Positions 17,887-57,530 of a DNA stretch of 64,000 nt are shown here, one piece after another. Under the pieces are notes generated by a model. The model was not told the DNA's origin. It saw nothing but the letters and a program-made list of their open reading frames with translations, and ran no database searches. Numbering within the stretch: position 1 is the stretch's first letter; the number at the start of each line of letters is the position of its first letter. Source of the DNA: Octopus vulgaris (Eukaryota); the NCBI GenBank assembly GCA_951406725.2, contig OX597824.1, positions 67,146,001 through 67,210,000 of the forward strand. The letters run 5' to 3'. The position numbers were made by a program, and so were the translations under genes.

Positions 17887-18292
17887 TATATATATGAAAG
17901 AAGGTTTGAAAATGCAATTTTAAAGATGTTTATTCATTTGACTGGTTTCACTTTTTAGAAAAAGATTGTCAAAAGTAAAATGTAAAGCTTTGTAATGTTA
18001 AGTACTGGTTGTCACAAAATATTACAATACATATGTATATTCTTTGATAATAATAATAAAATGTCAAAAACAGTTTACAGAGAAATATCTTGAGAAAATA
18101 TTAACATTTTCTTATTATTATCAAAGAATATATATATGTATTGTAATATTTTGTGACAACCAGTACTTAACACAACAAAGCTTTTACAGAGCTTTACATT
18201 TTACTTTTGAGAATCTTTTTCTAAAAAAGTGAATTCGGTCAAGTGAATAAACATCTTTAAAATTGTATTTTCAAACCTTCTTTCATATATAT
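17887..18292. mobile_element. Foldback element with ~180-bp arms, in a (TA)n context, hammerhead-like motif in each arm
   Basis: The arms are near reverse complements (atatgaaagaaggtttgaaaat... / ...attttcaaaccttctttcatat). Minus strand 17937-17974 reads uu-UUGACAA-u-cuuuu(ucu)aaaag-u-GAAA-ccaGUC-aaa. Confidence 0.75.
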
Positions 18293-18333
18293 TTCCACTT
18301 GTGCGGTACCTTACAACTTCACTTTGTTTCATA

Positions 18334-18366
<33 letters not shown>

Positions 18367-19369
18367 GAGCCTGATGCAGTCCTTGGACACACTGGACCCT
18401 ATCAAACCTTCCAATCCATGCCAGCATGGAACATGGATGTTAAACAATGTAGCAACTCAAGAGTACCAGCAAAGGCTTTGCAATATGACACAGACAAAAT
18501 GGTATATTCAGATTCTTTATTATGCAATTATGAATAGCTGTTGGCATTCATATAACACTGCTGTTGTATGGGGAATCTGTACAACCCCGTGATTGGCTAA
18601 GTGAACTATACTAGTTAGTATAAATGAGCATGCACAGAACAGTCAGGGTATAGGTTATAGGAATTATTGAATAAAAAATCATAGAGTGCTTGTTGAAGAT
18701 ACACAGTTGGAGAGTAAAAGAGAACATCAGGAACGTTTGATATTATAACAGTTCAGATAAAACAGTGATGACGAGAAGTTGATATCAATTGCGCTTCTTC
18801 ATCCATCTCTCTCAAAAAAAATTATGTATTTATATTTACTTTCTAAAGCATGGCAAGATGGAGGTGAGGTGTATGGATAACTTTTGTTACTCGTCTAAAA
18901 TTTATCCTGCATCAATAAGTGTTGACATACACATAAAATTATTGCCCTTCACCAATTTTTTCAAAACATATTTACATTTTCTTTAACTTTAACATAATCA
19001 TGTATATTGGCATGGTAGGAGTGAAAAATGTCTGTGTACCATCCATGCCTTTTATGATATATAAAGAGAAGAGCAATGCATGCTTAACAAGTGTTTTGTT
19101 AGTTTCAAATACTGATGTGAACAGAAGCTTTACTATAGGCAAAAACAACCCACAAACCTCAATTACCAAGGTATTAGTGATGGAAAGAAGGTTGGAAGTT
19201 CTGTGACCACTGATGTGTATCCTGTACATTGTTTTGATAAATTGTGCAGTGATGCTCTCTCATCACATAAGACTAGGTACTTTCTTATAAAAAAAAATGC
19301 CTGCAGTGGGACAAATTTATACCACATTAGGCATAAGCTTGGATTTGGAAAATGGATACTGAAAGAAGC

Positions 19370-19396
<27 letters not shown>

Positions 19397-19400
<4 letters not shown>

Positions 19401-19650
19401 GTCATCCCATAATTTCTGTCCAAATTTTGAATAAAGAAAACAAGTGATCAAATGTTATATTTAATTGAAATTTAATCATTAATGTACTTTCCTTGATTAT
19501 CTACAACTTCCTTCCATCTATTTAGAAGCTTTATAATCCCATCAATGTAAAATTCTTTGCGTATCTTCCATTAATCAAATACCCAACAGACACTGAGAAA
19601 GTGAACATGCTTTACCAGTAAACTACCAGGTCTATACTATACGATTTATT
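19397..19650 (-). mobile_element. Deleted mariner element
   Basis: The minus strand encodes KEFYIDGIIKLLNRWKEVVDNQGKYIND (mariner C-terminus). Abuts (TA)n. Confidence 0.7.
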
Positions 19651-21751
19651 AAGTAATATATATATGTGTGTGTGTGTTCATATATGTGTGTGTGCATGTA
19701 TGTGCACGCAAGTGTGTATGTTAATCTCTCCTTGTCTTTATGATAGTCATAAACAAGTATCACCACCATACAAGTGATGTCATTCATTTCCGATCTTCCA
19801 TGTAAATACATCTAGCTATGGAGAAATATTACCTAACTTGGAAACAGATGTAGTTTGCCAGCAGAAAGGGCATCGGCCATAGAAAATCTGCCTCGACAAA
19901 TTTCCATCTGACCCATGCAAGCATGGAAAAATAGCCATTAAAACAATGATGATAAGTGTTGAGAGCAGAGCTGATGTGGTAGTGGACAACAAGGAGAGAG
20001 GTCAGCAGATTCTATATTCTGATGATTGGCACTGGATTTGTTATGTGGTCCAGACACTTAACCGAACGCAAGCATGAATGCTTAATTCAGAAGTCTGCTT
20101 TGTAGTTAAGTGGTTTCAAATTCTGTTATACTGCTTGGATAGGTCTTTTCTACTCCAGCCTCAGGCTAATGAACATCTTGATCAAATGTCTCCTACCACA
20201 ACCTCAGGGTGACCAACACCTTGAACAAGTGTTTTCTACTACTGCCAAGCAACAATGTTGAAAAGTGTCTAGCCCTAACCATAGCCTCAGGTTGACCAAC
20301 ACCTTAGACAAATGTCTCCTACCAGAGCCTCAGGCTCACCAAGCCTTATGAATGTGGTTTAGTAGATGGAAATTGTATAGAAGCTCATTGGAGAGGCCAT
20401 TTTTTAGTTTCCATGTGTTCCTTGTATGCTTTTTGTGGAGTCTACACTGTTGTAAATTTTGAAGCCAAGTCTTCTGTCTAAGGTTAACTTACATCAGTCT
20501 TAAAGGCCCTGAAAAAGAACTGAGATACTGGCTTTACTCCTTTGACTATGCCATTCAAATTAACCAGTAGGAAACCTTGTACAATATAAGCATCAATTAA
20601 CCAAAAGGAGTTCATAGAATGTTGTTATGCCTGATTACTGTGTACCTATTTCCTGAACAACAACACTTTCATATTTTTCTAAGTTGGACTGTTGTGTACC
20701 TACAGCCATCTTTGCCTTTCTCTATTCTTTCCTAAAGGACAAAAAAAGTAAAATGTTAGACTTTCCTCTGCTCACAGCAATCAAACTTACTGACATTATG
20801 TGACCTTTCTTTTGTATATCTAGAACTACATTATCCAATGTGTCAAGATACTAGAGTTTATTTTAGGGTGATTTGGCAACCATACAAAGTTACTTTCATT
20901 GCACATTTGTGTGTGCTGTTCATGAAAAGTATATGGATTTGCTTGGAAAAGAAAGGAAAAAAAGAGAAGCTCTGGTCATCAAAAAAAAAATTAAAAAATT
21001 AAAGACTAAAGGTTTTGTCAAATAACATTGTACTTACATGATCATCCAGTTTTACTGTAGTCTTGATATTTTCGTATATTTATAAGAATATTTGATTATA
21101 GTCACTTCCCTCATGCTAACAAATAAGACAAGTTGAAGTTCTTTCAGGTTAGATATTTTCTCAAATTACTCTGGAAAGATACAAGGCAAAGTTTAAAGCC
21201 ACAGCAGTATATGTGCAGTACATGTCTTCATTAATTTAGAATTTTATTTTAAAACAAGCATATTTACATTGTATTGTTTTACTTGGAGATGATCATATTT
21301 TGCCAATTAGATCATTCTCAAGTATAATAATATTTGTGTCAACTCAAGAATCTTGAAAAACAAATACATAAATGTAACATATTTACACTGGCTTACTAGA
21401 AATACCAGCCAATTCTTCAAATTACACCTTACCATCTGAGAGTAGACCTATGTTTTTTTTAGATAATGTAATCTTATATAGACTGGGATGTATACCAGTT
21501 GTGTGTCTTTAATAAGTCTGCTCAGTCAAGACTGACCTGGGGGCTAAACAACATGTTTATATCTACTAAGTTAATTACTTCAGTGGTGTAATATATAATT
21601 AATGTTGATTGTATTTCATCTAACCAATACCATGGTATGTATAAAAGAGGAGTGTTACTTGACATATGACAAATAATGTTCAGAATACACTTTGCCACTG
21701 TGGTTTAATATCAGATAACATTACATGGTTATATTAGCTATACTATATTAA

Positions 21752-21968
21752 CTCTTTAGTATTTAAACTGGACATATATAGCCCAAAATATTCTACCTGT
21801 TTTATGTTCAAACTGACCAGATGTGGCTTTTCACAACTATCTAACAGTCATTCCAAAACTAAACAGCCAAATTTGAATTCTTAAAGCTATGAGTTAAAGC
21901 ATGATTGATTCAAAACAATATGAATAAATAAGCATTACATTTGATAGAATAATCTGAATGCTAAAGGG
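21752..21968. mobile_element. piggyBac-like MITE, second family (siblings at ~1445-1650 and ~15413-16007)
   Basis: TTAA|ctctttagtatt ... aatgctaaaggg|TTAA. Confidence 0.65.
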
Positions 21969-22139
21969 TTAAAGATACCTAGGACTACATAATTCATGTT
22001 CTGTCCTTTTTTAAAACACTTCTGTTCACATATTTCTAATGAAATGCATTGCCTTTGTTTAAATTAATCTTGAAAATAAAGAATTTAGTGAAATAATTTT
22101 GTCATTAAGGTAATGTTTGAAACATAAATTAATACTCTT

Positions 22140-23618: not shown

Positions 23619-23619
23619 T

Positions 23620-25790: not shown

Positions 25791-26936
25791 TGGAGTGGGT
25801 TGTAGGAAAAAATCCCCAGATAATGTAGCTATAACGTAAAACTATATATATATATATCATCATCATCATATATATATATATCAATGTAAAATGATTTTTT
25901 TGTGTTAAACTACAATAGATTGTGTGGACTTTACAACTGATATATTTCAATTTTGACATAATTTACTAGGCGAATCCTCATCAGTAACTATGTCATAACA
26001 ATTAACATAATTTAAAGACAAATAACACGTGTCTCATCATTATATGTTATAATTTTACAAAATTCACCATGCAACTGCAGTTTCAGTTGGCAATAAGTGA
26101 AAAATGCCAAACCAATCTTCGAAATGCTAAAATTGTATTCGTAAATTATATAGGGTAGTGAATATTTTTAGAAATTTCACCACCAGTGGCCTAGCATGTA
26201 TAAAAAGTCAATAGACAACATATTCTCAATATAAAATAGTGTACATTTAAACACAAGAGAAAACTACCTTTAACAGGTAATGTTTACATGCTATATATAA
26301 AGATATATATGCGTGTGTGACTGGTAGTAGTAGGCTTGTTTCTAAATTCTGAAATATATACAACATAAATTTGACATATGATGAGGACTGCACAGCAGTT
26401 AAGCAGGCTGAATGCAATTTGAGACTCTGCTAATCCTACTCTAAGCAGAAGATCTATGACAATAGCTGTAAGAAAACTGAATAAACAGTGAGGCACAACT
26501 GGCATAAGCATGGCTGCGTGTGTGGTTAAGAAGTTCACATTCAAATCACATGGTTTCAGGTTCAGTCCTTTTTAGGGCCTCTAAGACAGGAGCAGAGAAA
26601 CAATGAAGCTATTCTCAGGCCAACAACATTGGTGTTATAATGGGCAACAGATTAAACCAGCTACCAATAACAGGAAAGGTCCCTTTGACAGTCTTCAAAT
26701 GGATTAATTACAACCTCTGAGGATGAGATCAATCTGAAGTTACTATAGTCAAACAGTGGGATCTTATTAAGTCCCCAGGCATGAGACAATGTGTTACCTC
26801 ATTTGTGTTGCCTTACAGAATAAATTTGTTAAAAAATCATTTTTGTTTGGGTTCATTCAATTGTGAATGTTAAAAGATATTTACCTCTTGGTATACCTAG
26901 AAACTTGTACTTTTCACACTCACTAAGGTAGGTTAT

Positions 26937-27279
26937 TCTGTTGTGTCTGGGGAGAGTAATTTTCTTTTTATGCCTTATAATTTAACACACACACCAGTAA
27001 AATTTCCACTTATTTCTTATTTTTATTTTCCTAAAATTTTCGTTGCATCTTGCAACCTTTTTGATAGTCTTGAAGACTACTAAAGACAACTGAAAACTAT
27101 TGAAAAGGTTGCAAGACGCAACGAAAATTTTAGGAAAATAAAAATAAGTGGAAATTTTACCGGTGAGTGTGTTAAATTATAAAGCACAAAAAGAAAATGA
27201 CTCTCCCCAGACACAACAGAATATGCTTCAACACACAAACTCGTATAAAGAATCTTGCAAACCAAATCCAAAAACGAAA
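26937..27279. mobile_element. Foldback Penelope-like (pLTR-type) non-autonomous element, 13-bp TSD
   Basis: TSD taaggtaggttat at 26924-26936 and 27280-27292. Inverted arms of ~130 bp (~26935-27069 and ~27095-27222), with the right arm extended by an unpaired tail. Confidence 0.8.
27097..27133 (+). ncRNA. Minimal hammerhead variant (U3-A8 core)
   Basis: cua-UUGAAAA-g-guugc(aagac)gcaac-GAAA-auuu-uag: stems I and II pair, and the C3-G8 pair is replaced by U3-A8. Confidence 0.55.
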
Positions 27280-27839
27280 TAAGGTAGGTTATATAAATGG
27301 TTAAGCAACAATGAAACAAATATATTCATTCAGCAAACTTTAACAAGTTTAGTGAATGAGTATGTGGGAAGGAAATTTTAAGTATTTATGCTGATCATAC
27401 CTAAAATCATAATTGCTATATTTATAGATGAGAAGTCTCACAACAATATGAAGGAATTACATAGTAACACAATTGTTTCTTAATACCAAAGAAATGTCTT
27501 TGTCAAGACTCTAGCAGACGCATACATAAAAAGAGAGAGGTTGTGGTCAAGGCTGTCTTAGCAGCATTATAAACACCCCTGGGCAGGCAAATCAATGCAT
27601 TGGGACCTATAGCATTTATTTATTGATAAAAAACCACAACAGACACACATAGATCATAATTGTAATCTATCAGACTTGTGGGGCCCCTACCATAAGACTG
27701 CAATGGATGTGGTGGTGTTTCTTTTTAGAGTCAATTCTGTCTATAAACAAATAAATATTCTATAAACTTTTAAAAACAAAACAATAACATAAGCCTTATT
27801 TATATAAAATAGTGTTGGTACAATTACTTATTTCTCACA

Positions 27840-28298
27840 TTATTTACATTTGATGGATATTTGTTCTCATCTTGTTTGTTGTTAATACAATGTCTCAGCT
27901 GATATACCCTCCAGCCTTCATCAGGTGTTCTCATTCCTAAGGTATTTTTCGATGTTGTTGTTGTTGTTATCATTATTATTATTATTCAAGTCACTGCCTG
28001 GAATCGAACTTGGAATTTTGGGGTTAGTAGCCTGCGCTCTTAACCACTACACCATATGCCCATGGTTAACAGTGCAGGCTACTAACCCCAAGATTCCGAG
28101 TTCAATTCCAGGCAGTGACCTGAATAATAATAATAACATCGAAAAATACCTTAGGAATGAGAACCCAGGTTCGAAATTTCCCCAAGACACCTGATGAAGG
28201 CTGGAAGGTATATCAGCTGAAACGTTGTATTAACAAACATGATAAGGATAAATATCCGTCAAATGTAAATAATTCCTTATCTCTTAAATATAGAACTG
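27840..28298. mobile_element. Foldback retroelement: two head-to-head copies of a tRNA-headed, hammerhead-bearing SINE-like unit, 15-bp TSD
   Basis: TSD tacttatttctcaca at 27825-27839 and 28299-28313. Inverted arms. A box TGGTGTAGTGG and B box GTTCGATTCC on the minus strand from 28061. CTGATGA..GAAACGTT at 28191-28226. Confidence 0.85.
28187..28230 (+). ncRNA. Minimal hammerhead ribozyme motif
   Basis: acac-CUGAUGA-a-ggcug(gaagguauau)cagcu-GAAA-cguu-guau: conserved core, stem II, palindromic AACGUU stem III, one mismatch in stem I. Confidence 0.7.
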
Positions 28299-28422
28299 TA
28301 CTTATTTCTCACACTATATATTTCAATTGTTGAGAGAAGTGACAGTGAAAGCAGGCCATCAACATGAGCAGCAGTCACTGTGTGTAGTAGAAGTAGATTA
28401 CAAAAGGATAATTTCATGTAAA

Positions 28423-29421
28423 CCAGGGACAAAAAACGGAATTTTGAAAGCCAACATTTCAGATTTTCACCAAATTTTGACCAGTTGTTCCTATCAGTAA
28501 GAATAGAAAAGTGCAAAATTTCAGCTCCACTCCCCCAACTCCCAACGGTTCAAAAGTTACGACAATTTGAATTTTGCCCCAATTCACCCATTTTTAGGCA
28601 AGCAGTGGCCATCTTGAATTTCAATGCCGCAACAAATAATGTAATAACTTTCAATCTACATGGACTATTTTTCTGAAAATTTGTACCTGACCATTTTTTT
28701 GAGTGCTGAGTCTGAATTTGTAGAGAAATGGTAAAATGCTTGTTTTCTTGAATCAAAATGAAAGCACTTCACTGTTTTCTCTCGACACTGCTGTGTACTC
28801 AAAGCCAAATTCCCAGAAGTGCCCAAATCCTACAGCTTCAAAACTTTTTGCACATAAACTGGACATGATCTTTTACTTGTGTGTGAAAAATCTCAATGGC
28901 ACTCTCAAGACATCAAAAGTTACAAACCACCAAGTCGAGCCGTTCACTTGATATTTTCCAACCACAATCATAGGAAACATGGTAGTCAGAAGAAATTGTT
29001 GGTACCTGTTTTCTTCAAATTCTGTTTTCACAATGGTCATATCAGTACACCTGATTTGGGCACTTCTGGGAATTTGGCTTTGAGTACACAGCAGTGTTGG
29101 GGAAAAACGGTGTAGTGTTTTCAATTTGATTCAAGAAAACAAGCACTCTACCATGAGAAATACTCTCTTTTCTGTTCAAATTCAGATGCAGGACCCAAAA
29201 ACAAACAAAAAAAGGGGGGCAGGTACAAATTTTCAGAAAAATAGTCCATGTGGATTGAAAGTTATTACATTATTTGTTGCGACATTGAAATTCAAGATAG
29301 CCACTGCTTGCCTAAAAATGGGTGATTTGGGCCAAATTTCAAATCGTCATAACTTTTGAACTGCTGGGAGTTGGGGCCTGAAATTTTGCATTTTTTCTGT
29401 TCTTACTGATAGGAACAACTG
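28423..29421. mobile_element. Large foldback DNA element with ~350-bp inverted arms
   Basis: 28482-28829 (cagttgttcctatcagtaagaa...cccagaagtgcccaaatc) is the diverged reverse complement of 29053-29421. Confidence 0.8.
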
Positions 29422-32000: not shown

Positions 32001-33451
32001 ATTTTTGTTATGAACTTGTTTGTGTTGATGCATGTATTTTTTTTACTGTTACTCCCGTTTTGTGAGACGTGTTTGACAGTAAATTCTTTGTCCATTTCTA
32101 TCTCCGTGAGTTAATGAATGATAGCTGCTCTGAAAGTTTGCCGATCGGTGATTGCATTCGTTCAGTAATCTTTATTATGCCTCTAAATCAGTTTATTATA
32201 TTACTTTTATTAGTTTAGACCAGGCACGGGCAACCTTTATCGAGAAATGGGCTGCATGTAACTTGACTAATCAATGGGCGGGCTGCACTACTACAAACAA
32301 TTTATAATTTTTCGTTGGGCGTGCTCTGCTGGAAGTATCGCGGGATTGCCCATCTTTGATTTAGACAGTCATTCACTTTCGCACTCCAAGTAGGCAACGC
32401 CGTTCCTAAAATGGGTTGCGTACTCCGAAAAGGAGAAAAGGAAGATAGAAAGGAAAATGGAAGTTGGAAAATGTTTTTCATACTCATATATTTGTTATGT
32501 TTGTTCATAGAGGTGACTTGTGACGAAACAGGAATATGTTCATAAGGTGTCTATTTTTCGCTTTAGGGACATATAAGAGCACATTTATAAATCCCTTAAA
32601 TGAAAGCCTACCCTTGCCGTATTATGCGTAAATTTAAGTATATACAGGATGGTCGCTAGAAAAGCGGAAAATTCGTGAAATTCCGAATTACATTTTCACA
32701 AGATGTATTTGAGGTAAACAATAAACATCAAATTTTCCGCGGCAAGCCCCCCCCCCCCCAAAAAAAAAAACCACACTTAAATTTTTTTTTTTCGCTACAG
32801 ACCCCCACCCTTATTTCCTTCATTTTTTACTTTTTTCTGAATTTTTTTTTCTCAAAATATGCGGAAAAATACGGAGATTATGATTCTGAAAAAAAATTTC
32901 CAAAAATTTTTGTAAATTTTTTTTTTAAGAATTTTTTTTTTCTAAATATGCGGAAAAATACGGACATTATGATTCGGACAAAAATTTCAAAACATTTCTG
33001 TAGTTACGGTTAGGGTTTTAGGGTTAGGGTTAGTGTTGGGAGAAAAAGTCAGAATTGAAGAATTAGGTGTGGGGATTTAACAATGCCTATTTTTGGCAAT
33101 TTTCCGGAACTTCCGTATCCGAAAACAGTGGTTTTTGGCCCCCCCCCAAAAAAATTTTAATAAACAAATTTGGGAGAAACACCGGGTATGCGTATTCTTT
33201 ACCTTCGCCTAAAATTTGTGTATGTGCAAGGTTTCCGTATCTTTTATTTTTCTAATTTATAACCCAAGGTCCTGTTGTTTTCCCGAGCACCTACCAATTT
33301 GCAACCAGTCACGTCATCTTTGACCAACGATCCTGTTCAAAACTTGATCAAATCAGCACTTCGAAACCCAGTGATTTTCCCACCCAAATGAATGCATTTG
33401 TAGCGAACTCTAGTGAACTTCCTCTCTCTGTCGTACATATAAATCCATACT

Positions 33452-33770
33452 GGATCTATTCAATTTGACGGACTGATTTTTTAATTAGTTTTTTTTTTTT
33501 AGCTAAACACTTCGGAACTTCAGATACTGGTAGAATGTGTCACATAGAACAGGGTTTACTCTTGACGTTTTTGACAAAATTTTGTATTTTAGAAGTTATT
33601 TCGTGTTAAAGTTGTCCTATTTGTGTATTAACTTCTAAAATACAAAATTTTGTAAAAATTAAGAAAAAACCCTGTTCTGTGTGACACATTCTAACAGTAT
33701 CCGAAGTTTCAAAATGTTTAGTAAAAAAAAAAATTAATTAAAAAATCCGTCTGTCAAATTGAATAGATCC
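33452..33770. mobile_element. Long-TIR MITE related to the 41377 element (Merlin-like)
   Basis: ggatctattcaatttgac ... gtcaaattgaatagatcc, arms of ~145 bp. Degenerate 8-bp TSD tccatact/taaatact. Shares atactggtagaatgtgt with the 41377 element. Confidence 0.75.
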
Positions 33771-34869
33771 TAAATACTTACGAACGTAGCAGGTAACAGC
33801 TAACCTTCGGCGCTGTTTTGTACCTCGTTGTATCTACCACTCTGATTGCTTGATATTAGCGCAATTTGTCTCTTACTCTATCGCGTGCCAGTAAGCAACC
33901 CAACCAATCACAGCCTCCAAATAAATCACATGAGACAGTCTTTTCTAAACTCCATTTGAACCTACTATTGACTATAAATGCTAACCTCCTTCTAGTCGCG
34001 GAGTCTGTTGGTTCCAGACTTAAAAGGCGTTGCAGATGTTTTTGTGTTGATGGTTTGAGATGGAATCGCGTGGTTATGGAGTGACTGTTTGTTGTACTTG
34101 TTGAGGGTTTCTCCGAGTGGGTGAGCCTGGGATTTGTTAACTTTGTTGAATTTTGATCTATTGCTGCTGTTTTTGCCTGTTATTGTATTTGTTCTCTTCC
34201 CCAACTGTGGGTGAGGTGGAGGAAGGAGGAGATGTGGAAGGTGAACCAGCTGGAAGTTGCGCATCAGCTACGAGTAGGGGAGTGTCGACCAGCGCTTTGG
34301 AGGCGCGTGAAGTTAAGATGAAACCCGGAAGGTGGAAGGAAAGTGGTAGGTTGGTGGAAGGGAAGGCAGCCAGTTTGGGGCTGGCTCCACCGCAGGAGTT
34401 GGCGAACAGCATGGCGGTGGGGAGCAGTGGTGTGCAGAACGTTGTCTGCGTCCTTTAGGAGGATGGAGGTGGCCCCAATAGAGACGGTGGAGGAGTGTCT
34501 CAGGGAAGTGGAGAGGCTTTTCACATTTTGTGCACGTGGAGGTAAGTGCGGAGCGGTGGAGGTGGGGTTTGGTGGGGAGGAAGACGTGATGAGCCGCGCC
34601 ACTGAGCCGATGGGAGTGGCGGAGTAGGTACTTCTGCCGACTTGTTGTGACAAGTGAGTGGTCAGGGTGGGGATTGGCAGGGTGTTACCGGAGATTGGGG
34701 AGGCGTGGCCGATGACAGCGGTTGTGTATAGTGTGGAGGAGGACGCAAAAGTTTTGAAGAGCAGAGGCGGCAGGGTGCCGAGCGGGGGAAGAGTGACGGA
34801 CTCAGTAGGTGGGGAGGATTGTACGGTGGCGGATGGAAGGGGGAGGCGGAAGGAGGGCGTGGACTCACC

Positions 34870-36580
34870 GCCGAGGAGTCCGTTAAATAACCGGTGGTGG
34901 AGAGCCTTCAAAAGAGTCATTCGACTTAAGACGACTAGATTTAGCAAGCAGTTAAGTATAGAGCAGACCAGAGTAGAAAGGGATTTAGTTAAGGCGTTAG
35001 AAGAGGCGCTGAGAATGGGCTCTGCATCCCAAGTTTTCGCAGCGAGATCGGCCTTGGACCGACACCTCAATGCCAAACACGAAGGCTAAAGTACGAGCAT
35101 TGGGTCGCGAGGGTATCAACGTTGCCGGGTGGGCTCGCCCGGTAGAAACCCAACGTGTTGTGGATGCTACGATAAGGTCTGTGGTTAATGAACATGGACA
35201 GGAAGAGATGTGCAAGGCCTTTCACGAGCACTTTTGCTGCGTTGTTCGGGAGGAGCGGGACGCTGGACCATGGAGATACCCTCCGGGATTTCCAGGAGAA
35301 ATCAGTCGGCTTGCAACTCGGCACATGGCGTGACAAGTTGATGCTTCCCAACAGCGTCGTCGGACGCTGGACGGAAGGCTCGGTTAAATTGCTCGGAATT
35401 CGGTTTGTACCAGATCTCTAAGTGGAGAAAAATTGGAGCGAGGTGACAAGCAAGATGACGGCCATAACCCAAACTTGGTCTGGGAGGACGTTATCTTTGC
35501 TAGGAAGGGCCGAGGTTGCACAGATCTTATAGCATCAGTGATAACCTACCGCCTAACCGTCGTGCCTTGCCCCGGTTTGTGGCTGACCAAGTTGGAAAGG
35601 ATCCTTTTCCGCTTTTTGTGGAAAGAGAAAACTCCACTTACGAGGCGCTCCATCTGCTGCTAGTAACCGTTAAGGGGTAGATTGGGGATGCCTTGGCTGA
35701 TGATGCTCAAGTTTGCGCTGTGGCTGAGAGACCTCTGGCGCTACCTGGATGGTTAGCAGGTGTGGTCACCGCATGCCAAGCAACTCTTTCCACATTTGAA
35801 GTCCCTCAGGGACTTAGGTACATGGATCAAGCGGAGACCTAGGATGGGAGAATGGCAGGAGTGCAGACAAGCACTAACTTAGTTCTCTCTCAAGAGCAAT
35901 ACCGACATCTAGGTTACCACTGCAGATTTTTATAGAGGGTTGGTAGAGTATGAATCCGACGACATCCTGAAGGAGACTCTAGGCTTCGATGAGGAGCAAC
36001 TGACCAGCCTGTTCGGACAGACATTCGAGTCGAGGTATCTGGATAACTTCCAGAAATCCCTGGTTTGGTTGTACTACCGATCGGCCTTACCGGTTCGAGA
36101 GAGGTTGTCTAGACACGGTTTTGACACTTCCCCCACATGCCCGAGGTGCGGGCGCGTCAGTGAAACTGTCACGCACGCCTTCGTATTCTGTGAGGAGTTG
36201 AGGAAGTTGATAACCTATGTCGAACAACTGATGTCGGATGCAGAAAGAGTACGGCTCTCGACTGAGTCCATGGTTAAGATCGTACCGTCTCCCTCCTTTA
36301 ACAAGGAAAAGAAGGCATCTTTTTTCTGCGTAGTAGCCATACTGAAAGACACAGTATGGATGACACGTGCGAAAGGGATTGAGACAGACCACTTTATCTC
36401 CAGACACGGGCTAGTAAGTTATTTTAACTTCCACCTGTTACGAAAGATCCGTCTGGAGAAAAGGTACCTGCCTCAGAGTGTGTACGGAAAAAGATGGAAG
36501 ACTGTGGTAAGGAAGTTGAGTGTGAACCGGACCGTGCAAGTGTAGCCGGTCAAAATGAAAAAGAAGGGGGAAAAAACCAC
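34870..36580 (+). mobile_element. Degenerate L1/Tx1-type LINE ORF2 with internal deletions
   Basis: WWRAFKRVIR..., LERILFRFLWK, and the C-terminal zinc-finger-like LPVRERL...CPRCGRVSETVTHAFVFC. Multiple stops; purine/A-rich tail. Confidence 0.8.
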
Positions 36581-41376: not shown

Positions 41377-41814
41377 GGATCTTTTCGGTTTGAACGGCAG
41401 TTTTTAACATAATTTCTAGGTAACTAAAAAATTTTAAACTTCGTATACTGGTAGAATGTGTTTATAAAACATCTTTTTCTCTTGGCTTTATTGAGAAAAT
41501 TCTATAGTTTGTAAGATATTTGTTGTTTTTTTTCTTCAATTTCTCAATTTCAACCAATCACTGACGTCTATTGATGTAAAAAACATTCTGTGCCGTATGA
41601 ATATGTCCCTCGTTTAAGAAACAGATTGGGTTTATTTACATTTGTGAAGAAAAAAAGATAACCTTCCCCCCACCCCTAGCTCTAACCTTAACCCTAACTA
41701 ACCCTAACCCTAAAACAGATTGAAATGCAATATATCGATACTAGGGTCATAATTATGGGTGACAATTTCATATGACACCGCTAGAAAAAACTGCCGTTCA
41801 AACCGAGAAGATCC
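41377..41814. mobile_element. Merlin-like MITE with 8-bp TSD, inserted in a SINE head; carries (CCCTAA)n-like repeats
   Basis: TSD gagttcag at 41369-41376 and 41815-41822. TIR ggatcttttcggtttgaacggcagttttt / aaaaactgccgttcaaaccgagaagatcc. GG..CC termini with an 8-bp TSD fit Merlin. Confidence 0.8.
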
Positions 41815-43512: not shown

Positions 43513-44688
43513 CTGTCACAAAGACATTATCAATGGTAGTTAATGTTTTTTAAAGAAAAGGTTGTATTAACAGGTTCAATGAAGTCGCTCGGAGGTGGGG
43601 CCGAATGGCTGCATTCCATTTTTTCATTATATTCAATTCATCTCTTCCATTCGTTTTGTTTTTTTGTCCTCACCTTGTGCTGTCGTCCCCTCTATGTATG
43701 GCCTTCGTGCCCAATTTCATGGAATAAAGAGGCTTGCTTCCCAGCCACACGGTTCCGGGTTCAGTCCAACTGCGTGGCACTTTGGGCAAGTGTCTTCTAC
43801 TTTAGTCTCGGGCCGACCAAAGCTTCGCAAGTGGATTTGGTCGACGGAAACTGAAAGAAGCCCGTCGTATATATATATCTTTTAAATGTGTTTACTTGAA
43901 ACGTTTTGAATATGCAAATAAAGCTCATATTCCATTATGCCACCACAGTCTAATGATGCTGACTGGTGAACCAGATTTTTGGGGATGCATCAAGCTGCAC
44001 CGATATAATGTAAGATAAATATAGTAATAATAACAATAATCCTTGGATAGGATTTATAAACATTTAGTGCATCGCTATGCACTTTTCCACAAATCACGTC
44101 TCTTAAAATCACTTTCCATATTCCTAGGATGATTACAGCATAGTCCGTAGTATCTGTGGTCATCAGATTGATCATCTTCATGGATTCATTTCTTCAGGCG
44201 AGATAACATTAATGGATGTTTAGCAGAAGGATGTTTATCTCTTTTGACCGTGGGCAACCCAATGCTCACGGATACTACGGACTACACGATAATCATCCCA
44301 GGAATACGGACTGTGATCTTAAGAGACATGTGATTTGTGGAAACGCTCGTAGTGATGCATTAAATGTTTATAAATTCCATCCAAGGATTATTGTTATTAT
44401 TACTATTTATATATATATGTGTGTGTCTGTGTGTCCCACTACCGCTTGACAACCAGTGTTGGTGTGTTTACGGCCCGTAAATTAGCGGTTCGGGTAAAGT
44501 AACTGATAGAATAAGTACTAGAATTTTAAAAAAATATTGAGGCCAACTAAAAATTCTTCAAGGCGGTGCCCCAGCATGGCCACAGTCTAAGAACTGAAAC
44601 TTCCCTTCTTTCCTGAGCGTCAAATAATACTTTAATTGTTCCACGTCCTCGCGTTGCTGTGTTTTTTTCTGTGTTTTCTTGTTTGGAT

Positions 44689-44731
<43 letters not shown>

Positions 44732-44737
44732 TTTACT

Positions 44738-44945
44738 TTATTTAAAGCAGCAGAAAATTCAACAAAACCTGTTACTCTGAGTTTCCCGTTGCCGTTCATC
44801 GGACAGTTCCGATGAACGGCAACGGGAAACTCAGAGTAACAGGTTTTGTTGAATTTTCTGCTGCTTTAAATAACGTATATTACTCTACCACTGGTATTTG
44901 AGTACTCTTTTTTTCCACTTTGTTTCACATTTATGTGTTTACTCC

Positions 44946-44948
<3 letters not shown>
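44738..44948. mobile_element. Perfect 66-bp-arm foldback with hammerhead motif plus a one-sided tail, between (TA)n tracts
   Basis: 44738-44803 is the exact reverse complement of 44808-44873 (loop cagt). Confidence 0.85.
44769..44806 (-). ncRNA. Minimal hammerhead variant (C4 core)
   Basis: cugu-CCGAUGA-a-cg(gcaa)cg-g-GAAA-cucagaGUA-acag: stem I cugu/acag, short GNRA-capped stem II. Confidence 0.6.
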
Positions 44949-45162: not shown

Positions 45163-45166
<4 letters not shown>

Positions 45167-45438
45167 CTTCTCTTGCATTCTACTGTCTTTGAAAGAACTT
45201 TTTCTTCACCCATTCCCTTCCGGTCATTCAAAATGTGACTGCGTGTGTATCGTTGGCGATTTTTTTTCCTCCGTCTTTCCTTTCTCGGATCTTTCTTTTT
45301 CCTATGTTTCTGACGAAGAGCTCCGCTCGAAACGTTAAATCCTCCTTCTTTCTTTCCTTTCAATAGCGTCCAACAACACTATCCTTGTTCCACGTCCTCG
45401 CGTTGTTGTGTTTTCTCTTTGTGTTTTCATGTTTGGAT

Positions 45439-45442
<4 letters not shown>
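45163..45442 (+). mobile_element. Penelope-like pLTR-type element between (TA)n tracts (partial sibling at ~44601-44692)
   Basis: Contains a hammerhead. Its 3' part (ttgttccacgtcctcgcgttg...gtttggattaac-(TA)n) is repeated at 44637-44692. Confidence 0.7.
45307..45339 (+). ncRNA. Minimal hammerhead ribozyme motif
   Basis: uuu-CUGACGA-a-gagc(ucc)gcuc-GAAA-cguu-aaa: canonical core, all stems pair. Confidence 0.75.
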
Positions 45443-49259: not shown

Positions 49260-49752
49260 ATTCGCTGGTGGAATCGATGTTCGACGGGCGCAGTAGGTTC
49301 GTTGCGCTAATTCTGTATAAAATTTTTGTTTACAAACATGTCACGTTCAATGTTGAAAGAAGAAATAGATTGCGCTTTTTAATCGCGTGCCAAGTTGAAA
49401 TCCTGCTAGCAATTGATATTTATAACACTATTGATATGCTAGTTGTTGAATCGACTATACCTCTTGCCTATTAAAAGTAAAAGCAATATTAATATATATA
49501 TTTAAAAAAAGAAAAAAAAAAACGAAACAATTTAGCTCTTAATTTATTATACACCACAAACATCTGTAATACATCTCAAATATCATTACTCTGCAGTAAA
49601 TATTTACAAGGCGATCACCACTTCTGATTTTTAAATTAGCTGTTTATATAGAAAGAAAATTCCTTCATTTATAGACGTTTCTCCAGACTTCATTCTGTGA
49701 TGCGCCTAGACACATCAGCTGTTTTCTTGTGATCATTGAGTGTTTAGGTTCT
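49260..49752 (+). promoter_or_regulatory. Candidate promoter / 5'-UTR exon region of the plus-strand gene
   Basis: Locally CpG-rich unique sequence (49260-49390) at the right edge of the CpG-retaining domain. Possible small exon 49675-49752 (atttatAG ... GTATGT). Confidence 0.25.
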
Positions 49753-49755
49753 GTA

Positions 49756-49794
<39 letters not shown>

Positions 49795-49845
49795 GTGTAT
49801 GTATGTATGTATATATATATATATATATATATGTGTGTATGTATG

Positions 49846-49882
<37 letters not shown>

Positions 49883-49895
49883 ATATGTATGTATG

Positions 49896-49926
<31 letters not shown>

Positions 49927-49941
49927 GTGTATGTATGTATG

Positions 49942-49976
<35 letters not shown>

Positions 49977-50025
49977 GTGTATGTATATATATATATATAT
50001 GTATGTATGTGTATGTATGTGTATG

Positions 50026-50056
<31 letters not shown>

Positions 50057-50071
50057 GTATGTATGTGTATG

Positions 50072-50104
<33 letters not shown>

Positions 50105-50191
50105 ATGTATGTATATATGTATGTATGTATGTATATATATGTATGTATGTGTATGTATGTATGTATATATATATGTATGTATGTATGTATG

Positions 50192-50224
<33 letters not shown>

Positions 50225-50473
50225 ATGTGTATGTATGTATGTATGTATATATATATGTATGTATGTATGTATGTGTATGTATATATATATGTATGTATAT
50301 ATATATATATATGTATGTATGTATATATATATATATATATATATGTGTGTATGTATGTATGTGTATGTATATATATATATGTATGTATGTATGTATATAT
50401 ATATATATATATATATGTGTATGTATGTATGTGTATGTATATATATATATATATGTATGTATGTATGTGTATG

Positions 50474-50504
<31 letters not shown>

Positions 50505-50521
50505 GTGTATGTATGTGTATG

Positions 50522-50552
<31 letters not shown>

Positions 50553-50557
50553 GTATG

Positions 50558-50590
<33 letters not shown>

Positions 50591-50595
50591 GTATG

Positions 50596-50626
<31 letters not shown>

Positions 50627-50631
50627 GTATG

Positions 50632-50664
<33 letters not shown>

Positions 50665-50709
50665 GTATGTATATATATATATATATGTGTGTATGTATGT
50701 ATGTGTATG

Positions 50710-50742
<33 letters not shown>

Positions 50743-50837
50743 GTATATGTATATATATATATATATATATGTATGTGTATGTATATATATATGTATGTAT
50801 GTGTATGTATATATATATATATATATATGTATGTGTA

Positions 50838-50886
<49 letters not shown>

Positions 50887-50959
50887 GTATGTATATATAT
50901 GTATATATATATATATGTATGTATGTATGTGTATGTGTATGTATGTATGTATGTGTATG

Positions 50960-50994
<35 letters not shown>

Positions 50995-51000
50995 GTGTAT

Positions 51001-51032
<32 letters not shown>

Positions 51033-51035
51033 ATG

Positions 51036-51068
<33 letters not shown>

Positions 51069-51075
51069 GTGTATG

Positions 51076-51110
<35 letters not shown>

Positions 51111-51115
51111 GTGTA

Positions 51116-51146
<31 letters not shown>

Positions 51147-51187
51147 GTATGTGTATATATATATATATATATGTATGTATGTGTATG

Positions 51188-51218
<31 letters not shown>

Positions 51219-51335
51219 GTATGTATATATGTATGTATGTATGTGTATGTATATATATATATATATGTATGTATGTGTATGTATATATATATATATATAT
51301 GTATGTATGTGTATGTATATATATACATGTATATA

Positions 51336-51370
<35 letters not shown>

Positions 51371-51529
51371 GTATGTATATATATATATATGTATGTATGT
51401 ATGTGTATGTATATATATATGTATGTATGTATGTATGTGTATGTATATATATATATATGTATGTATGTATGTGTATGTATATATATATATATGTATGTAT
51501 GTATGTGTATGTATATATGTGTATGTGTA

Positions 51530-51574
<45 letters not shown>

Positions 51575-51707
51575 GTATGTATATATATATATATATGTAT
51601 GTATGTGTATGTATATATATATATATATGTATGTATGTGTATGTATATATATATATATATGTATGTATGTGTATGTATATATATATATATATGTATGTAT
51701 GTGTATG

Positions 51708-51738
<31 letters not shown>

Positions 51739-51743
51739 GTATG

Positions 51744-51776
<33 letters not shown>

Positions 51777-51781
51777 GTATG

Positions 51782-51812
<31 letters not shown>

Positions 51813-51885
51813 GTATGTATATATATATATATATATGTATGTATGTGTATGTATGTATATATATATATATGTATGTATGTATGTG

Positions 51886-51930
<45 letters not shown>

Positions 51931-51969
51931 GTATGTATATATATATATATGTATGTATGTATGTGTATG

Positions 51970-52000
<31 letters not shown>

Positions 52001-52117
52001 GTGTATGTATATATATATATATGTATGTATGTATGTGTATGTATGTATATATATATATGTATGTATGTATGTGTATGTATGTATGTATATATATGTATGT
52101 ATGTATGTATGTGTATG

Positions 52118-52152
<35 letters not shown>

Positions 52153-52157
52153 GTATG

Positions 52158-52192
<35 letters not shown>

Positions 52193-52197
52193 GTATG

Positions 52198-52230
<33 letters not shown>

Positions 52231-52232
52231 GT

Positions 52233-52263
<31 letters not shown>

Positions 52264-52473
52264 TATGTATATATATATATATATATGTATGTATGTGTAT
52301 ATATATATATATATATGTATGTATGTGTATGTATATATATATATATATGTATGTATGTATGTGTATGTATATATATATATGTATGTATGTATGTGTATGT
52401 ATGTATGTATATATATATATGTATGTATGTATGTATATATATGTATGTATGTATGTATGTGTTTGTATGTATG

Positions 52474-52505
<32 letters not shown>

Positions 52506-52889
52506 CGTATGTGTATGTATATATATATATATATATATATAACTATATATGTATGTATGTACGTATGTATATATATATATATAACTATATATGTATGTAT
52601 GTACGTATGTGTATGTATATATATATATATAACTATATATATATGTATGTACGTATGTGTATGTATATATATATATATAACTATATATATATGTATGTAC
52701 GTATGTGTATGTATATATATATATATAACTATATATATATGTATGTACGTATGTGTATGTATATATATATATATAACTATATATATATGTATGTACGTAT
52801 GTGTATGTATATATATATATATAACTATATGTATGTGTATGTATGTATAAATATATATATACACACACACACACATATATATATACACA
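49753..52889. repeat. ~3.1-kb compound (TA)n/(TATG)n/(TG)n microsatellite
   Basis: Directly visible. Recurrent unit gtatgtatgtgtatgt(at)n. Confidence 0.98.
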
Positions 52890-53605: not shown

Positions 53606-53626
53606 GTGTGTGTGTGTATATATATA

Positions 53627-54033
53627 TCATTATCGTTTAACGCCTGCTTTCCATGCTAGCATGGGTTGGACGATTTTGACTGAGAACTTGCGAACCAGAT
53701 GGCTGCACCAGTCTCCAGTCTGGCAGAGTTTCTACAGCTGGATGCCCTTCCTAACGCCAACCACTCCGAGAGTGTAGTGGGTGCTTTTTACGTGCCACCG
53801 GCACAGGGGCCAGTCGGCCAGTACTGGCAATGACCTCGCTCGAATCTTTTTATACATGCCACAAGCACAGGTGCCAGTAAGACGATGCTGGTAACGATCA
53901 CGCTTGAATGGTGCCCTTTTATGTGCCACTGGCACGGAAGCCAGTTAGCCGCTCTGGCAATGATCACGCTTGGATGGTGCTCTTGGCACCCTACTAGCAC
54001 GGGCACAAGTGCCAGTAAGGAGACGCTGGTAAC
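53627..54033 (-). mobile_element. Family-C SINE with RTE-like tail and internal ~50-bp repeats (siblings at 6856-7190, 11113-11430, 58654-58978)
   Basis: (cat)n-cgtttaacg..ccatgctagcatgggttggacg...ctacagctggatgcccttcctaacgccaacc, and repeated gtgctttttacgtgccaccggcac. Confidence 0.85.
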
Positions 54034-54072
54034 GATATATAAATATGAGATTTTATAACTAGCGATTTTGCT

Positions 54073-54137
<65 letters not shown>

Positions 54138-54510
54138 ATATATGTGTGTGTATATATGTATGTATATATATGTGTGTGTATATATATATGTATGTATATA
54201 TATGTGTGTGTATATATATATGTATGTATATATATGTGTGTGTATATATATATGTATGTATATATATGTGTGTGTATATATGTATGTATATATATGTGTG
54301 TGTATATATATATGTATGTATATATACATGTGTGTGTATATATATATATATATGTATATATATATAAGTGTGTATATATGTGTATGTGTGTGTATATATA
54401 TATATATGTGTAAGTGTGTATGTATATGTATACATGTATATATATATGTATATGTATGTACATGTGTGTGTATATATATATGTGTGTGTGTGTATGTATA
54501 TATGTAGATA
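54073..54510. repeat. Compound (TA)n/(TG)n microsatellite (also 29840-30087, 44949-45162, 47395-47612)
   Basis: Directly visible. Confidence 0.95.
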
Positions 54511-54514
54511 TATG

Positions 54515-55082
54515 AATTGAATTTGATGTCACTATCCTCATTTGCACCTCTCGCCATGAGGTAGGTTCATCTGGGACTCTCAACAGGAAGAGGTCCAGTT
54601 TTGATTTGAAAACACCTATATCCACTTTGTGTAGGCCCCTCAGGCTCTTTGGGAGAATATTAAAAAGCTGTGGGCCCCTGAAACCCAGGCTGTTGCAGTA
54701 ATTGGCTCTGAAGCGTGATGGCATTGCTGGGAGATTTGGTACTGTGCAGTGTTGACCCATTCTGGCATTGGTGTAGCTTTCAGTGCCAAAATTTGACATA
54801 ATTCCTTCCATGATCTTCCAGATGTATATTACTGCATACCTCTCCTGCCTTCACTCCAGGGAGCTGTTTCAGCCTTTCCCAGTAGCTGAGCTGTAGCAAT
54901 GAGACGATCTTCTTTGTGAAGCTTCACTGGATTGCTTCAAGTTCTGCTGTTAATTTTACACTGTTCGGTGACCATGGCTGGGAGCAGTAATCCAGGTGGC
55001 TAAGGACAAATGTCCTTCAGAGGACCATCATCGTTTCCTTATCTCTGGTTCTGAATGTTCTTAGGATCCAGCCAGCCAGTCG
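54515..55082 (-). mobile_element. CR1-type LINE 3' fragment, opposite orientation to the adjacent copy
   Basis: The minus strand encodes [37 protein letters not shown], homologous to the 56930-57070 region. Confidence 0.85.
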
Positions 55083-55139
55083 ATAAAAAACTCAATAAAT
55101 TCATGTCAATAATGTGAGCCATATGCATTAAATATTTCC

Positions 55140-57110
55140 CTGAGAAAGGAGCCAATACACACAAAAACGTCATTCCCTGAGACAGGAAAATACTCATGCG
55201 GAGGAGAATAATGATCATTTAAACAAACACCTTAATGACAGTGTGAGATCCCATCTGACAAAGGAACTCTTTGTGATAGAAAATAAACTCAAAATCTCCC
55301 ATGAAAAAGAAAGAGAAACCTGAGCAGTTGAAAATATAAAAAGAAATCCTAAAGCCTTCTACACGTTGGCAAAGGAGTCTACGTCAGTACGCTATAAGAT
55401 AGAGCCACTATTTGGTAAAAATGACTCACTAACTGCAGACCCAAGGAAGATAAGTGAAGCACTAAATAAACAATTCTGAAGTGTTTTCACTTCTCCAATG
55501 GAAATATGCAAATAAACAAGCCAAAGGAGTTTTTCAATGTAATGAATCTATTTGGAAAAGAGGCAACAATCGATTACGTCAACATCACAGAAGAGGATGT
55601 AATATTGGTTATTGATGAGATGAGATCAAACGCAGCAACAGGCCCAGGTGGACTCCTGGCTCTTCTCTTAAAGACATGTAAAAAGGCTTTAGCAAAGCCA
55701 CTGCAGATACTCTTTCAGAGTTTCTTTGCATGTTGTAAACTCCCCAACATGCTAAAAGAGGGTATAATATGCCTCGTCTATAAAGGAAGGAGGAGAGCAG
55801 ATGCTAAAACCTACAGGTTCATCCCTCTGACCGCACTTGTTTGCAAGACAATGGAACACATTGTCAGAGAAAGGTTAATCATGTTCCTAGAAGAAAACAA
55901 CCTCACAAACAAGCAACCTGGCTTCCGTCCAGGAAAGAGCTGCCTCACACAGTTGCTGCAGCACTTTGACTGGGTACTGAAGCAATGGCTAAACCAGTCA
56001 GCTGTAGATGTGATATACCTCAACTTTGCCAAGGCCTTCGACAAGGTTGATCATGGCATGATATGCCACAAGCTGCGAAACCTTGGTGTTACCGGGAAAC
56101 TGGGTGAGTGGCCACATGATTTCCTGAAAGACAGGAGTCAGATAGTAGTAGCCAATGGTGCTCACCCCGAGGAGACACCAATTCTCAATGGAGTCCCACA
56201 GGGAACTGTACTGGGGCCACTACTATTTATGGTAGCCCTCTCAGACATGCCCTCCGTGGTACAGTCAGCCAATCTGACCAGTTATGCTGATGACACAAAA
56301 GTATTGCAGGCAGTTAGGAAGGACATCATAAAACTTCAGAAAGACCTGAACGAAGTCTTCTAATGGGCTAACAAAAATAACATGCAGTGCAATGCTATGA
56401 AATTTCAGGCACTCCACTATCAGTCCAACACCAGGCTAAAACCAGAATACACTGGACCAGAAGGTAATATGATCCCAGAGTCAGAGTTGGTGTGTGACCT
56501 GGGGGTTCACATGAGCAATGATGCAACATTCCATGTGCATATTACCAAGATTGCAACAATGTGCAAAAGAGTGGCTGGCTGGATTCTGAGGACATTCAGA
56601 ATCAGGAAAAGGGAGGCTCTGCTACTCCTATAGAAGACTTTTGTTCTCAGCTGCTTGGACTACTGCTCCCAACTATGGTCCCCAGAGAGTGTGGAACTTG
56701 AAGCAATCCAGCACCAGTACACAAAGAAGATTGACTCGATGCAAAAGATGGGCTACTGGGAGAGGCTAAGGGAGCTGAGTCTGTGTTCACTAGAGAGAAG
56801 ACAAGAAAGATATGTGGTGATATATATTTGGAGGGTTTTGCTCTCAATTTTGACAGCTATACCAATCCTCGAACTGGATGGCACTGCATCATACCAAAGC
56901 TCCTTTCTTACCTGTCTAGAATAAGGACACAGTACTGCAATAGTCTGGGTTTTAAGGGCCTGCAATTGTTCAACATCCTTCCAAGCAACCTTAGAGATCT
57001 ACATGGTATTGATGCGGAAGTTTTCAAGGAACGTCTGGACAGGTTCCTATCTGGTACCAGATGAACCCACAATGCAGCAAGAGATGCAAAGAAGAGCAGC
57101 TCTGTCCATC
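55140..57110 (+). mobile_element. Degenerate CR1/L2-type LINE ORF2 (reverse transcriptase), 5'-truncated
   Basis: ORF 55506-56363 contains QPGFRPGKSC, DVIYLNFAKAFDKVDH, GVPQGTVLGPLLF and YADDTK. It continues through stops and frameshifts to YCSQLWSP and LERRQERY. Confidence 0.9.
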
Positions 57111-57149
57111 TTGCTACTTCACCAAAAACAATATTAGAAACGTTTAAAT

Positions 57150-57530
57150 ATTTGTTGTGCAAGATTTTTTATGTCAAGTCGTGTGTTGAAACAGATATTG
57201 TTATATTTCGGAATGGTCATATTGCCAGTTTAGCCAATAAAAACACACGCACTATATATTTGGTGTTATTTTGCTTCAGTGATATTTATTTTTTACATTA
57301 ATCTTAATCTTATTTCGGCCAAAGTTCTTTCGCCACACTCCTGTGACCGCATCAGTGGTCCTTTGTTTTCTTCTTACTTATTTGTGTCTCTCCTTACTAA
57401 CCGTCAGCCATTACGATAGAGTAGTTGTATACTGTCAACTTAATGTGACAGTCCCATGAAGGGAATCACACCACTGCTATTTAGCCCTAGGAAGCATCGA
57501 CGCTTCCTGTTGGCCTTGACACATTTCCTG
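57150..57530 (-). mobile_element. Penelope-like terminal-repeat fragment with hammerhead
   Basis: Hammerhead fold at 57319-57358 followed by an AT-rich tail, lying immediately after a CR1 3' end. Confidence 0.5.
57319..57358 (-). ncRNA. Minimal hammerhead variant (CUGAUGC core)
   Basis: cca-CUGAUGC-g-gucaca(ggag)uguggc-GAAA-gaacuu-ugg. Confidence 0.55.

Follow-up and report, generated by a model that had tools for sequence, protein, structure and literature searches.

Here we describe six short repeat elements in a 64,000-nt stretch of the Octopus vulgaris genome (GenBank assembly GCA_951406725.2, contig OX597824.1, positions 67,146,001 to 67,210,000 of the forward strand; hereafter the window), each of which carries at least one sequence with the shape of a minimal hammerhead ribozyme. 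The window consists of repeat-rich DNA, and the six elements, whose parts are listed in Table 1, sum to about 2.1 kb, or 3.3% of it. Their numbering follows seven motif sites reported in an earlier note on this DNA, where sites 1 and 2 belong to the two arms of a single element, which is accordingly referred to as element 1/2. The inverted arms of the elements and their related copies in the window were found by masked self-BLAST, and the mirror copies of the motif at sites 3, 4 and 5 had been overlooked in the earlier note.

Table 1. Elements, hammerhead-shaped motifs and related features in the window (positions are those of the window).
Feature	Position	Strand or arms	Remarks
Element 1/2, fold-back	17888..18345	arms 17888-18067 (-), 18101-18292 (+)	extension 18293-18345 on right arm alone, then (TA)n
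Site 1 motif	17937..17974	-	U3-A8 core; 2-pair stem I; U-U at the start of stem II; C17
Site 2, decayed mirror copy of site 1	18205..18242	+	A15.1 lost (GAAU); motif incomplete
Element 3, fold-back	26924..27292	arms 26934-27071 (-), 27093-27223 (+)	tail 27224-27281 on right arm alone
Site 3 motif	27097..27133	+	U3-A8 core; 5-pair stem II opening with G-C; palindromic AAAUUU; equals family majority
Site 3 mirror copy, decayed	27031..27067	-	core positions 4 and 5 altered
Element 4, fold-back	27825..28313	long arm 27839-28061 (-), 5'-shortened inverted arm 28063-28273 (+)	extension 28274-28298 on right arm alone
tRNA-like head of element 4	28000..28061	-	first base 28061; A box from eighth base (28054); B box from 28009
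Site 4 motif	28187..28230	+	canonical core; AACGUU; C-A mismatch in stem I; G-U at 10.1-11.1
Site 4 mirror copy	27885..27928	-	four defects, each mended by the family-majority letter
Element 5, near-perfect fold-back	44734..44947	arms 44734-44803, 44808-44877	extension 44878-44947 on right arm alone; (TA)n on both sides
Site 5 motif	44769..44806	-	U4C core; 2-pair stem II; near-palindromic stem III; A17
Site 5 mirror copy	44808..44842	+	most of stem I gone
Element 6	45163..45442	+	between TA-rich microsatellites; canonical motif 45307-45339
Element 7, 5' boundary not fixed	57140..57358	-	A9C motif at 57319-57358; homology of 3' end with end and tail of element 3

Hammerhead-shaped sequence is present at all seven coordinates given previously. 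For the purpose of counting we used a wide descriptor that was loosened post hoc until the motifs of the earlier note were admitted. It yields six matches in the window, compared with 1.59±1.27 in 300 local dinucleotide shuffles, and six or more matches were reached in 3 of the 300. The six matches are the sites of the earlier note except for the one at 18205, with no extra match in the window. When at least nine stem pairs are demanded, six matches are observed versus 0.17 in the shuffles (maximum 2). Matches with U3-A8 in place of the usual C3-G8 pair number two versus 0.35 in the shuffles, where two were reached 11 times in 300, and a tighter first descriptor matched four of the seven sites versus 0.57 matches in 60 shuffles. 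Because of the excess of six matches over 1.59±1.27, and of six over 0.17 at nine or more pairs, the motif set as a whole is above chance. Chance as the origin of the entire set is thereby ruled out, while a single match of the loose kind could still be chance-derived. The sequence at 18205 (site 2) reads UUGAGAA...GAAUUCGGUC, with GAAU where GAAA is expected, and consequently fails both descriptors, so that the seven motifs originally reported are all hammerhead-shaped but only six pass even the wide descriptor.

The motifs resemble each other in structure while differing in the quality of their stems. All six parses include a one-base 5' offset, namely an extra base between positions 9 and 10.1. 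The G10.1-C11.1 pair is found at sites 3, 6 and 7, is represented by G-U in the copy at site 4, and is absent from both the site 1 and the site 5 copy. Stem I is as short at site 4 as at site 1, i.e., two pairs. Stem III, which had been described as mostly palindromic, is a perfect palindrome at sites 3, 4 and 6 and nearly so at site 5 (8 of 9 positions), but reaches only 4 of 6 at site 7. At site 1/2 it is palindromic only when the two arms are merged, and the stem III previously written as ACC[A/G]GU is actually such a merger of two arms of one element. Standard models miss these motifs where scanned, as had been predicted: local scans with the Rfam hammerhead families gave no match at E ≤ 10 over sites 3, 4, 6 and 7, and a scan of the whole window gave only microsatellite and hairpin look-alikes among the best 150 of 222 matches. 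Rfam-based annotation therefore misses them. Scans with exact patterns for further copies returned none in metagenome contigs, none in GTDB genomes and none in viral contigs.

Four of the six elements are head-to-head fold-backs (17888-18292, 26934-27223, 27839-28273 and 44734-44877) with an outward-pointing motif on each arm, and in all four the right arm exceeds the stop of the left arm by 25-70 nt. At element 4 this extension falls within the target duplication, while at elements 1/2 and 5 it is read from the window sequence alone. Exact direct repeats flank element 3 (13 bp, at 26924-26936 and 27280-27292) and element 4 (15 bp, at 27825-27839 and 28299-28313); repeats of such lengths were reached in 3 and 2, respectively, of 1500 masked control placements. 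Element 1/2 has a weak candidate target duplication of 7 bp (17879-17885 and 18366-18372), a length of at least 7 nt being found in 245 of 1500 controls. TA-rich microsatellites flank elements 5 and 6. In the five elements measured, 39-150 nt separate the presumed cut site from the element end. The combination of fold-backs, one-sided extensions and 13-15-bp duplications indicates the insertion anatomy of Penelope-like elements (PLEs). We consider it very probable that the six repeats are truncated terminal repeats (pLTRs) of several PLE families with minimal type I hammerheads near their 3' ends, which persist in the genome as inert stubs. The earlier note was right to regard the motifs as minimal and retroelement-derived, but its view that all of their carriers are non-autonomous elements gives way to one in which five of the six resemble 5'-truncated or folded-back PLE ends.

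The mechanism, the dimer cleavage and the parent elements that we propose are taken over from published PLEs. By that analogy, a PLE protein would cut AT-rich DNA, and reverse transcription would begin at two adjacent sites about 40-150 nt 3' of the hammerhead. One cDNA would give the tailed arm and the other, after early termination, the shorter inverted arm. Head-to-head joining of the two arms would then account for the fold-back structure, for the tail on a single arm and for the duplicated target. In the source element the motif might cleave only as a dimer formed through the palindromic stem III, or else with help from the protein of the element, and the copies would decay after insertion. 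Each of the whole fold-backs is predicted to fold into one long hairpin, and a read-through transcript of a fold-back may accordingly adopt, in such a model, a structure that buries both motifs.

In a different interpretation, the elements are units similar to miniature inverted-repeat transposable elements (MITEs), or fold-back units that propagate themselves, and the motifs are either there by accident or are copied together as an invariant pair of ribozymes. Inverted-repeat elements with no motif match do occur in the same window (33452-33770, 44015-44412 and 28482-29421). A MITE-like origin nevertheless sits poorly with the one-sided tails, the 13-15-bp target duplications, the multiple inversion joints and the unequal arm starts, and sites 6 and 7 have the motif with no palindrome around it. 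We regard it as very unlikely for the set, and for elements 3 and 4 MITEs are rejected.

Family-level evidence comes from contigs of four sequencing runs out of 24 (four organism labels), which were mapped on positions 27060-28062 at 80% likeness. Relative to the unique flank, sites 3 and 4 have a summed depth 3e4-1.3e5 times as high in the four runs, a ratio that is not a copy number; both represent very high-copy families. Across the 37 places of the site 3 motif no alternative letter attains 10% in the mapped contigs, and U3-A8 is therefore the state of the site 3 family. In each of the four runs this family terminates at two 3' positions, 27224 and 27281. Its opposite-strand joints fall at several different places (among 15 of 130 joints listed), as expected if the fold-backs arose in independent events.

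Among five differences listed for the mirror copy of site 4, four are within the motif, and all four family-majority letters restore it. The majority shares are 92-96% for stem I, 64-78% for the palindrome, 99-100% for GAAA and 54-72% for G10.1-C11.1, and the two lower ones (palindrome and G10.1-C11.1) fall at CpG positions, which suggests that many genomic copies of the family have decayed. This pattern is what would be expected of a selected source accompanied by neutral copies.

The flanks of the motifs, all of which had been called unrelated, prove to include relatives. Elements 3 and 7 agree at 72% across 74 nt of their 3' ends, with a score of 76 versus 28±4 in shuffles and none of 1000 shuffles reaching it. 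A weak likeness is also seen between the 3' ends of elements 1/2 and 5 (2 of 1000 shuffles; 15 pairs tested), and the remaining 13 of the 15 element-pair comparisons are not significant. When motifs 3 and 7 are aligned by structure, both partners have changed at pair 3-8 (U-A versus C-G), at one stem I pair and at two stem II pairs, and there is additionally one one-sided change. These compensatory changes are stronger evidence of covariation than was available to the earlier note. U3-A8 can be accepted as the genuine variant it was claimed to be, with majority status in the site 3 family.

Two stretches in the window are related to the same elements. At 6570-6614 (+) there is a 47-nt remnant that matches the tail of the site 3 family alone at 91%, as would result from an insertion confined to the part between the two family ends; this part is also heavily covered in the mapped contigs. 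At 21301-21375 (+) there is an old fragment with 66% likeness over 88 nt to the 3' end of element 7, and no motif match lies upstream of it. The family of element 6 likewise has a second 3' fragment, at 44608-44692 (84% over 86 nt).

The kinship of sites 3 and 7 bears on a more restricted alternative, which holds that the odd cores at sites 1/2, 5 (U4C) and 7 (A9C) are chance look-alikes or the result of post-insertion damage rather than selected variants. The family-level mapping took in sites 3 and 4 only, the wide descriptor yields 1.6 chance matches per window, the two arms of one element are not independent, and decay of copies is evident at site 4. On the other side of the balance, site 7 has its 3' end and paired stems in common with site 3, sites 1/2 and 5 lie within fold-backs whose one-sided extensions and end distance are as in the others, and natural hammerheads with U4C and U10.1-U11.1 are on record (PMC3088659). 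We find this explanation unlikely, although it carries appreciable weight.

Several observations weigh against the assignment of the six repeats to PLEs with selected hammerheads. Concerning the elements themselves, none of the seven window open reading frames (ORFs) scanned links a PLE reverse transcriptase or GIY-YIG ORF to any of the elements; the domains found are one RVT_1 (55470-56360), one zf-RVT (35913-36542) and one UPF0669, none of them shown to be of PLE origin. An inverted arm is absent at sites 6 and 7, and a target duplication was looked for at element 7 and not found. With regard to the motifs, only site 3 beats shuffles in monomer folding (z -2.55), the other five having z between -1.24 and 0.79. 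U occupies position 17 in four motifs. U17 is the poorest base for cleavage. The adjustment of the descriptor after the motifs had been seen weighs on the excess over shuffles, and the structural alignment of motifs 3 and 7 has to accommodate a spacer that is longer in site 7 by about 50 nt. The family-level mapping is confined to sites 3 and 4, and its 80% threshold could hide divergent cores. Finally, the expectation that the core is better kept than the flanks comes out in the right direction at site 3 but weakly: none of 37 motif places vary versus 15 of 148 downstream (p=0.044), or versus 12 of 148 once three copy-private changes are removed (p=0.13).

Much of what we describe has counterparts in the literature. 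Minimal type I hammerheads in PLE pLTRs, belonging to many families and numbering thousands per metazoan genome, were reported by Cervera and de la Pena in 2014 (PMC4209133), and the large and diverse population that the earlier note deduced is therefore not new. The same paper describes about 1,300 U3-A8 motifs in Schistosoma mansoni, an extra base after position 9, a palindromic stem III and opposite-strand pairs 100-700 bp apart, together with an absence of cleavage by monomers and weak cleavage by dimers. The octopus motifs agree with these in the minimal type I fold, the extra base 9/10.1, the palindromic stem III and U3-A8, and the elements agree in forming many families, mostly of single truncated copies, with opposite-strand pairs. 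They differ in their stems I and II, which do not reach the 4-5 and 7-8 bp of S. mansoni, and in the presence of U4C and A9C copies, which are not mentioned in the available parts of PMC4209133. Natural hammerheads with U3-A8 have also been described in PMC3088659. In PLE ends, minimal hammerheads of the dimer type, the U3-A8 variant and pairing on opposite strands have been in print since 2014, and the octopus set extends this largely known pattern; our literature search found no paper on these octopus hammerhead families.

Similarly, inverted truncated copies, one-sided tails, target duplications, a bias toward microsatellites and mobilisation in trans are documented for PLEs (PMC3846280, PMC8557442), and the tail has been traced to two internal priming sites (PMC11167929). 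The insertion units in the window resemble the published ones in their head-to-head arms, one-arm tail, target duplication and AT-rich or (TA)n targets. They differ from them in the length of the extensions (25-70 nt versus 30-40), in the length of the duplications (13-15 bp versus 8-10 in Adineta vaga) and in having no ORF attached. For O. vulgaris itself PLEs have been estimated at 6.83% of the genome in 190 families (PMC13282606), compared with about 3.3% of the window for the elements described here; the term hammerhead is absent from the supplement to that paper. As regards the role of the PLE hammerhead, insertion in vitro did not require its protein-assisted cleavage, and lizard data contained no cleaved reads (PMC11167929). 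The sister families of sites 3 and 7, with their compensatory core and stem pairs, provide a natural test of selection on cleavage. Given that Rfam-based annotation misses these motifs, short octopus repeats labelled as SINE (short interspersed nuclear element), as MITE or as unknown may represent ends of PLEs.

The hammerheads would also fit non-LTR (long terminal repeat) retrozymes, which would make small circular RNAs via double self-cleavage. These share with the octopus elements their non-coding nature, the type I topology of the motif and a proposed dependence on PLEs (PMC7229834; 10.64898/2026.07.22.740005), and an origin of retrozymes from PLE pLTRs has been proposed (10.64898/2026.07.22.740005). 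Retrozymes, however, consist of tandem monomers with canonical motifs, whereas the elements described here are minimal and without tandems. No head-to-tail unit with two same-strand motifs was found in the window, for which reason retrozyme tandems were rejected, and the minimal PLE type of motif is kept apart from retrozyme hammerheads in PMC7229834. We judge this interpretation to be very improbable.

Element 4 may be more than a pLTR stub. Its long arm opens seven bases ahead of an exact A box, in agreement with tRNA numbering, and an exact B box follows 45 nt further; the two form the sole exact A and B pair in the window, where 0.245 pairs would be expected anywhere. Since the exact boxes are laid out from tRNA position 1, they suggest that element 4 is a complete polymerase III SINE, consisting of a tRNA-like head, an AAT repeat, the hammerhead and a PLE-type 3' end, that is carried in trans by a PLE enzyme. 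We advance this only tentatively and without giving it even odds. In its favor, the boxes stand not only at tRNA positions but at the very start of the element. The head is present in both arms within one target duplication, the shorter arm being cut within the A box. PLE ends suffice for mobilisation in trans according to PMC3846280. In a protein search with spurious translations of element 4 one real copy was found, the spurious protein P0001, which spans the stretch from B box to motif of another copy and ends where the TGA of the core would stop; two further matches, in repetitive proteins, were dismissed as chance, and a second-frame search gave no match.

Against a SINE, the Rfam tRNA models give no match to the head at E ≤ 10 and no cloverleaf is predicted; the local scans of sites 3, 4, 6 and 7 likewise returned no tRNA family. 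The contig mapping left the head out, so that linkage of head and body is seen in element 4 and one partial copy, and P0001 is a single record that does not include the A box. The head may instead be a one-off capture, or part of the pLTR of an autonomous element. Two further results are uninformative: runs of T4 are missing in element 4, as they are in 3416 of 5000 shuffles, and ARAGORN at a low threshold gives 177 matches.

The nearest described system to such a SINE are the polymerase III hammerhead SINEs of schistosomes. The Sm-alpha and Sj-alpha SINE-like elements (PMC6765202) resemble element 4 in combining a polymerase III promoter with a hammerhead in a short repeat. They form tandems that release monomers. 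Element 4, by contrast, is dispersed and folded back, its motif is minimal and its ends are of PLE type. No PLE-carried tRNA SINE came up in our literature searches. It is quite possible that element 4 belongs to a very-high-copy octopus SINE mobilised by a PLE and not by a LINE (long interspersed nuclear element), having kept the hammerhead, the internal priming sites and the fold-back habit, and that the C3-G8 and U3-A8 sister families alongside it reflect selection for cleavage in source elements. This possibility would refine the assignment to PLE stubs for one family. If true, it would add a new class of autonomous partner for SINEs and, being short and natural, could serve as a template when PLE-based insertion is engineered.

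The remainder of the window contains several other features. An unbroken ORF of a UPF0669 (C6orf120-like) gene lies at 13647-14354 (-), the gene itself being placed at 13650-14258, and along its full length the protein shows 100% identity with one predicted for Octopus vulgaris. GC-richer retroelement remains (zf-RVT, RVT_1) are found at 34264-36545 and 55470-56363. The fold-back palindrome at 44015-44412 ends in (TA)-rich sequence, and each of its arms contains a stretch that resembles a decayed core; a target duplication was not found around it, and it is possibly a seventh, older stub of PLE type. The 320-bp palindrome at 33452-33770 and the 940-bp element at 28482-29421, the latter with inverted ends of about 350 bp, are likely DNA elements of MITE type. 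Between elements 3 and 4, at 27540-27670, is a lower-copy repeat with a summed depth about 100 times that of the unique flank. A 3.1-kb TA/TATG microsatellite array at 49750-52875 gives rise to spurious ORFs of 900-1000 codons and to many false Rfam microRNA matches. Short interstitial TTAGGG-like repeats at 33003-33037 and 41674-41713, on opposite strands, bracket a CpG-richer region.

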